Shown: piece by piece, positions 46,797 through 47,065 of the stretch
How positions within the stretch are numbered: position 1 is the stretch's first letter
Layout: each line of letters starts with the position of its first letter
NCBI GenBank assembly: GCA_024679065.1
Contig: JAGIQG010000032.1
Span: forward strand, 13,702,001-13,766,000
DNA length: 64,000 nucleotides
Reading direction: 5' to 3'
Source: Sphyrna mokarran
Taxonomy: Eukaryota
Program-made: the position numbers and the translations under genes
The notes under the pieces: model-generated
Database searches by the model: none
What the model was told of the DNA's origin: nothing
The model's input: only the letters and a program-made list of their open reading frames with translations

Positions 46797-46888
46797 TTTC
46801 TGCCTCGTGTCGCATTAAAAGTCCCTCCGTATTTCTTCCGATTAAGGATGAGAGCAGCAATTTCTGGTACGTATCGAGCAAACATTGC
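46797..46888 (-). CDS. KCNMA1: Alternative, mutually exclusive S6-RCK1 linker exon (e9alt)
   Basis: 92 nt with the same phases as exon 9, acceptor ttcatgcatgtag and donor gtaagt. Translates [30 protein letters not shown](K). Confidence 0.95.
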
Positions 46889-46973
46889 CTACATGCATGA
46901 AACAGAAAAAGAAAATGGCATGCAGAGAGTGTTCTACTGCATCAGAGGCAGCAGAGGCGCATGGGATACTTAC
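46889..46973 (-). promoter_or_regulatory. 85-nt intron between the tandem exons, with two UGCAUG (RBFOX-type) motifs and a donor-proximal branch-point candidate
   Basis: Plus-strand catgca (TGCATG on the transcript) occurs at 46892-46897 and 46919-46924. CTCTGAT has its A about 32 nt from the upstream donor. Confidence 0.6.
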
Positions 46974-47065
46974 TTTCTTCCATTAACCGCACTATAGGTA
47001 CCACCATATTTCTTGCGGTTTCCTATTAATTCTATGATTTCAGGGACGTAGCTCGCAAACATGGC
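46974..47065 (-). CDS. KCNMA1: Canonical S6 C-terminus / S6-RCK1 linker exon (exon 9)
   Basis: 92 nt, acceptor cttcttcttag and donor gtaagt. Translates [30 protein letters not shown](K), with the YVPEIIE acidic ring and the RKK motif. Confidence 0.97.

Follow-up and report, generated by a model that had tools for sequence, protein, structure and literature searches.

The part of KCNMA1 (Slo1, BK alpha) on the minus strand of this 64,000-nt stretch of Sphyrna mokarran DNA (the window) contains two intact 92-nt exons, 85 nt apart, which very probably represent the e9/e9alt pair inherited from the jawed-vertebrate ancestor. An mRNA likely includes only one of the two. A smaller current would be expected from the e9alt form, owing to the replacement of a glutamate at the inner mouth of the pore by alanine and to an added arginine. 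The exon anatomy, the loss of the reading frame with both or neither exon and the orthology of each exon were established here, and the expectation of a lower current is taken from papers on other species.

That the pair exists, that it is old and that skate electroreceptors use it is already known; the finding therefore changes little. The idea, also put forward in the original prediction, that electrosensory tuning may be a splicing choice is likewise already in print for skate, in a 2018 preprint (bioRxiv 10.1101/274449). The contribution is mainly corrective: the low-conductance BK vestibule of skate is a splice form encoded by nearly all of the jawed vertebrates fetched and not a species difference, so that BK of low conductance is predicted wherever mammalian cells use e9alt. 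Additionally, the conserved intron between the exons gives a small point of entry to the mechanism of exon choice.

Anatomy and reading frame of the exon pair

Membership of KCNMA1/Slo1 is indicated by the pore-S6-RCK1 sequence and by the orthologous order of the exons. Because the neighbouring KCNMA1 exons, numbered relative to e9, stand in order around the pair (Table 1), the pair is not a chance occurrence. The two are homologous, equal-length exons at the S6-RCK1 linker, each preceded by AG and followed by GTAAGT, and they agree with each other at 59/92 nt and 22/30 residues. The gene identity and the two intact paralogous exons of the original prediction were thereby recovered. For comparison, a second vertebrate-type locus (L001), with peptides equal to the teleost types, is arranged in the same way, its two exons being separated by an intron of 89 nt.

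Table 1. Features of the KCNMA1 exon pair and its surroundings, in window positions
Feature	Position	Strand	Comparison or basis
Exon 8, 171 nt, pore loop and most of S6	60861..61031	-	AG/GT flanks; tblastn with skate BK P0132
Weakly conserved intronic block upstream of e9	47611..47657	-	79% over 47 nt to L001 1091-1137, E 1e-4
Exon 9 (e9; S317, E321, E324 form)	46974..47065	-	28/30 to human Slo1 313-342; 88/92 nt to L001
85-nt intron between the exons	46889..46973	-	71 matches to the 89-nt L001 intron
Predicted 8-bp hairpin hiding two internal AG dinucleotides (weak)	46933..46955	-	MFE of the isolated intron, both sequences
UGCAUG element 1	46919..46924	-	+50 from e9 donor, -36 from e9alt acceptor; window and L001
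UGCAUG element 2	46892..46897	-	-9 to -4 from e9alt acceptor; window and L001
Exon 9alt (e9alt; R317, E321, A324 form)	46797..46888	-	31/31 to little skate (BK record P0132), shark and Xenopus records; 85/92 nt to L001
Arg codon of e9alt	46876..46874	-	
Ala codon of e9alt	46855..46853	-	
Weakly conserved block downstream of e9alt	46141..46163	-	91% over 23 nt to L001 2704-2726, E 0.014
Second weakly conserved block downstream of e9alt	45779..45806	-	93% over 28 nt to L001 3169-3196, E 3e-5
Exon 10, 111 nt, start of RCK1; carries the stop met when e9 and e9alt are both included	35368..35478	-	
Exon 11, 106 nt	30858..30963	-	
Exon 12, 83 nt	26141..26223	-	
Exon 13, 70 nt	22602..22671	-	
Exon 14, 156 nt	15537..15692	-	

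Residue numbers in e9 follow the match to human Slo1, in which exon positions 5, 9 and 12 correspond to S317, E321 and E324, the latter two being numbered as in PMC3105516. Relative to e9, the e9alt exon replaces Ser317 with Arg, keeps Glu321 and replaces Glu324 with Ala, in agreement with the predicted Ser-to-Arg change and loss of the second glutamate of the ring. A third charge change (N to R) is found at exon position 28, and the net charge rises from +2 in e9 to +5 in e9alt. The e9 peptide of the window also carries one Thr that is absent from every other e9 fetched. Solved human Slo1 structures span the e9 site.

With the annotated splice sites, the reading frame survives when exactly one of the two exons is included, whichever it is. 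Inclusion of both shifts the frame and leads to a stop codon starting at nt 6 of exon 10, as had been foreseen. If both are omitted, the first stop is reached at codon 84 of the resulting e8-e10-e11 sequence. Transcripts with double or zero inclusion would presumably be cleared by nonsense-mediated decay.

A separate observation concerns a GT lying 14 nt before the normal e9 donor (window 46987..46982, minus strand), which serves as the donor in 19 automatically built gene models of fish, reptile, bird and mammal origin (P0001-P0003, P0010-P0023, P0231 and P0233). In these models, e9 is cut after 26 codons and joined in frame to e9alt. The join is most likely a prediction artefact; if real, the resulting double-linker isoform would escape the frameshift.

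No tandem repeats were found within window positions 30000-62000. The introns do contain a dispersed short multi-copy element at 36038-36324 (copies near 897-1171, 16841-17003, 19689-19867, 23407-23600, 24096-24287, 25629-25777 and 59384-59544), an 850-nt repeat pair (48320-49156 with 5439-6291, 68%) with open frames that resemble reverse transcriptase, and an imperfect 200-nt palindrome at 43414-43613. At about 8657-9045, a tandem-like stretch of low complexity gives rise to minus-strand open frames that are repetitive and rich in Gly.

Spread of the e9alt peptide, conductance and gating

The spliced e8-e9alt-e10..e13 peptide of the window was identical (211/211) to 10 elasmobranch records from Amblyraja, Chiloscyllium and Stegostoma, the elasmobranch "isoform X" records being annotation models. 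It matched Scyliorhinus torazame at 210/211, little skate at 209/211 and the four tetrapod records compared (frog, alligator, bird) at 202-204/211; the peptide thus marks an elasmobranch and agrees with skate records as well as with shark ones. The e9alt segment itself was found at 30/30 in 17 of the fetched proteins (little skate, thorny skate, sharks, Xenopus, Pelobates and geckos), at 29/30 in 91 bird, alligator and turtle proteins, at 27-28/30 in teleost, sturgeon and snake, and at 25/30 in six mammal-type proteins, where all five differing residues fall in the linker half. Its first 17 residues, with the Arg and Ala included, are unchanged in 124 of the 248 fetched proteins, a ratio that is no frequency given that the set was fetched with e9alt-biased queries; 20 of the 124 carriers are gene models fusing both exons.

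The predicted correspondence with skate BK held in full, the little-skate record carrying the same peptide with Arg and Ala at R318 and A325 in its own numbering; both residue changes of the skate low-conductance channel at the inner vestibule, Arg at 317 and the loss of Glu324, are present in the window. The label "electroreceptor-type", on the other hand, did not survive the comparison: the first 17 residues are common to elasmobranchs, teleosts, sturgeon, frogs, reptiles, birds and mammals, and e9alt expression is also documented in the mouse cochlea (PMC11758846). From these comparisons, what electroreceptors employ is most likely a long-existing splice form of sensory cells and neurons. 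Shark electroreceptors reportedly depend less on BK than on a Kv channel.

With regard to conductance, PMC3105516 describes an E321/E324 ring that doubles the outward current, with the two positions equal in effect. The skate preprint states that the alternative exon is the one included in ampullary BK, in contrast to the embryo form, which has the other exon, and its summary of Bellono 2017 gives ampullary BK as low conductance (bioRxiv 10.1101/274449). Following these and other papers on other species, the lost ring glutamate and the added positive charge in e9alt would leave less potassium at the inner mouth and thereby lower conductance, and the linker half of e9alt would additionally alter gating.

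This gating effect is the basis of the strongest alternative, to which we give somewhat less than an even chance: in neurons and hair cells, e9alt may be kept mainly for its effect on voltage and calcium gating via the S6-RCK1 linker, with the low conductance a by-product that skates exploit. The alternative is compatible with the preferred explanation, and both can hold together. It agrees with the finding that mouse e9alt on STREX-1, beyond occurring in the cochlea, reduces calcium sensitivity and, at zero calcium, moves activation about 50 mV leftward (PMC11758846), with the strong influence of the S6-RCK1 linker sequence on V0.5 (PMC7371421) and with the confinement of the mammalian e9alt differences to the linker half. 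However, the part that is invariant from elasmobranchs to mammals is the stretch of 17 residues containing the Arg and Ala, which points at the pore mouth, and a separate exon event in Drosophila slo is reported to alter conductance (Lagrutta 1994, as cited in PMC9741552). Six further papers (PMC9967218, PMC10486799, PMC11979771, PMC12713644, PMC10018040 and PMC10834251) added nothing on the e9alt exon.

The intron between e9 and e9alt

Conservation is not restricted to the exons. The intron between them matches its L001 counterpart at 71/85 positions, against a mean of 49.6 and a maximum of 59 in 1000 shuffles, and beyond the first flanking bin the window and L001 share only 37-51 matches per 85 nt. 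Strong conservation around old alternative exons is itself common. Farther out, the window and L001 have three short conserved intronic blocks in the same order (Table 1); no significant pairing was detected among these blocks or with the exons.

The intron holds two UGCAUG elements, both of which are conserved in L001 and lie near e9alt. This hexamer occurs 25 times on the same strand of the 64 kb, giving a probability of about 5e-4 for two or more in one pre-chosen intron. Two more copies are located at 31016 (53 nt before exon 11) and at 26209 (inside exon 12). Clusters of YCAY, the Nova-type motif, were also considered, and none is conserved between the window and L001 introns. UGCAUG is identified as an Rbfox-type motif in PMC2777236; together with the conservation of the intron in two sequences, the paired elements constitute a candidate switch. 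Under the Rbfox position rule as given in PMC2777236, Rbfox-type proteins bound to the two elements would favour e9 and block e9alt. Cells in which the block is lifted would then use e9alt. Because neurons are rich in Rbfox, this reading fits badly with e9alt as a neuronal exon. The exon is so called in the title of Soom et al. 2008. Among the papers listed by literature searches (15 of 19 and 20 of 190), no title or abstract start dealt with Rbfox control of KCNMA1 e9/e9alt, a weak negative.

A broader proposal is that the intron has been kept as a switch for >400 million years, with Rbfox-type proteins on UGCAUG and perhaps an acceptor-hiding stem choosing between high- and low-conductance BK, and that skate electroreceptors and mammalian inner hair cells share one inherited splicing programme of a common sensory-cell lineage. 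We offer this proposal tentatively and consider it doubtful.

The length of the intron could contribute as well, since splicing requires at least about 50 nt between donor and branch point. The sole consensus-like branch-site A, at +32, is not kept in L001, and a distant branch point at this position acting as a fixed steric block was rejected for that reason; positions of about -47 to -44 and -33 carry conserved As. Therefore, it is plausible only that the very short intron sterically hinders the joining of e9 to e9alt.

It is unlikely that RNA structure sets the choice, with UGCAUG-containing arms pairing to hide the e9alt acceptor and a stem-opening protein admitting e9alt. When folded in isolation, the introns of the window and L001 do form two 8-bp stems in common, the acceptor being hidden by the second (fold z of -2.05 and -5.83), and the differences between the two introns avoid paired columns (2/32 paired vs. 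18/57 unpaired; Fisher p 0.007). However, the comparison consists of two sequences with no pair changed on both sides, and conservation of the motif and splice site alone could account for the second stem. In longer context, each sequence loses one stem: the window stem 1, at 0.03, and L001 stem 2, at 0.0. The predicted hairpin of Table 1 shows two one-sided changes and has a pair probability of 0.03 in the window's longer context. Long-range docking or selector pairing was also considered and is unsupported, as none of 12 duplex and 10 helix tests was clearly above shuffles or common to both sequences.

Orthology, origin and likeness to known systems

An exon-level tree had been proposed as a check of the original prediction, and the window's two exons do not cluster together in either peptides or DNA. 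In a tree of 21 peptides (30 columns), the e9alt rows form one group with a support of 89/91, unstarred. Forcing the two exons of the window together was rejected by the AU test with 13 peptides (p-AU 1.3e-5), which were selected from the 21 rows by omitting identical rows, L002 and both P0004 copies, and the pair as a clade was likewise rejected with 8 DNA rows (p-AU 1.1e-6). These trees are built on 30 residues or 92 nt, and the outgroup of the 8-row DNA tree is not a single clade. Each exon is orthologous to its counterpart in other vertebrates, including the mammalian e9alt equivalent that the prediction had named. Since the trees and AU tests reject a lineage-specific duplication, the duplication of e9 and e9alt is placed, on these alignments, before the split between cartilaginous and bony fish, as was expected.

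The invertebrate-type loci L002-L005 each contain a single copy of the Ser/Glu type, which suggests that Ser/Glu is likely the ancestral form and Arg/Ala the derived one. No intron is present at either e9 boundary in L003 and L005. These four loci have short introns and differing exon layouts, and share 24-25/30 residues with vertebrate e9 around the ring. An invertebrate-type protein of 90 aa (P0004) has two copies of the S6-linker segment, both Ser/Glu; in the tree the copies pair up (90/89), which agrees with the segment having been duplicated independently at the site.

Among protein matches listed (best 120 of 5762, best 120 of 789 and 35 of 35), there was no lamprey or hagfish record, which is no evidence of absence; chimaera was present among the matches listed with e9 only, and the same searches gave no e9alt from lamprey, hagfish or chimaera. 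Vertebrate loci numbered 0 of 243 stretches in genome contigs and 0 of 16 in viral contigs, and the metagenome contig search gave 5 of 340, one of them vertebrate-type.

Compared with L001, the codons of conserved residues are unchanged at 25/28 and 22/26 positions in the two exons (synonymous change at 3/28 and 4/26), whereas only 7/21 are unchanged between the paralogues e9 and e9alt (14/21 synonymously changed), suggesting that both exons are under strong constraint. This constraint, the intact splice sites and frame, and the complete match to skate and frog proteins (31/31) make it very improbable that e9alt is a silent pseudo-exon in this genome. Least probable of all is an elasmobranch or electroreceptor innovation of the Arg/Ala exon, whether by new coding sequence or lineage-specific duplication: skate ampullary BK carries Arg/Ala and has low conductance (bioRxiv 10.1101/274449), but the same peptide is found in Xenopus, Pelobates and gecko, Arg/Ala occurs in teleosts, birds and mammals, a clade of the window's two exons fails the AU tests, and e9alt orthologues outside elasmobranchs have already refuted this reading.

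The inherited e9/e9alt pair can be compared with several known systems. The Rbfox-regulated exclusive exons of alpha-actinin (NM/SM), FGFR2 (IIIb/IIIc) and egl-15 (5A/5B), as described in PMC2777236, have in common with the window a UGCAUG upstream of one exon near the branch region and downstream of the other. Calcitonin exon 4 has a UGCAUG at -34, similar to element 1 at -36 (PMC2777236). The resemblance of the window's intron to these systems is one of motif placement only. Drosophila slowpoke also has tandem exons in the same region (Lagrutta 1994; Martinez-Gomez 2022, PMC9741552), and this exon event is called convergent, not orthologous to vertebrate e9/e9alt, in PMC9741552. For skate electroreceptor BK, the preprint names three charged residues, and three is also the number of positions at which the two exons of the window differ in charge.

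KCNMA1 is listed among the human tandem duplicated exon events, >90% of which have teleost orthologues (PMC9741552). The mammalian KCNMA1 e9/e9alt pair differs from that of the window at 5/30 residues of e9alt, within the linker half. It occupies the same site at the end of S6 and the S6-RCK1 linker, belongs to the same length class, shares the first 17 residues of e9alt and is likewise mutually exclusive by frame (Soom et al. 2008; PMC11758846).
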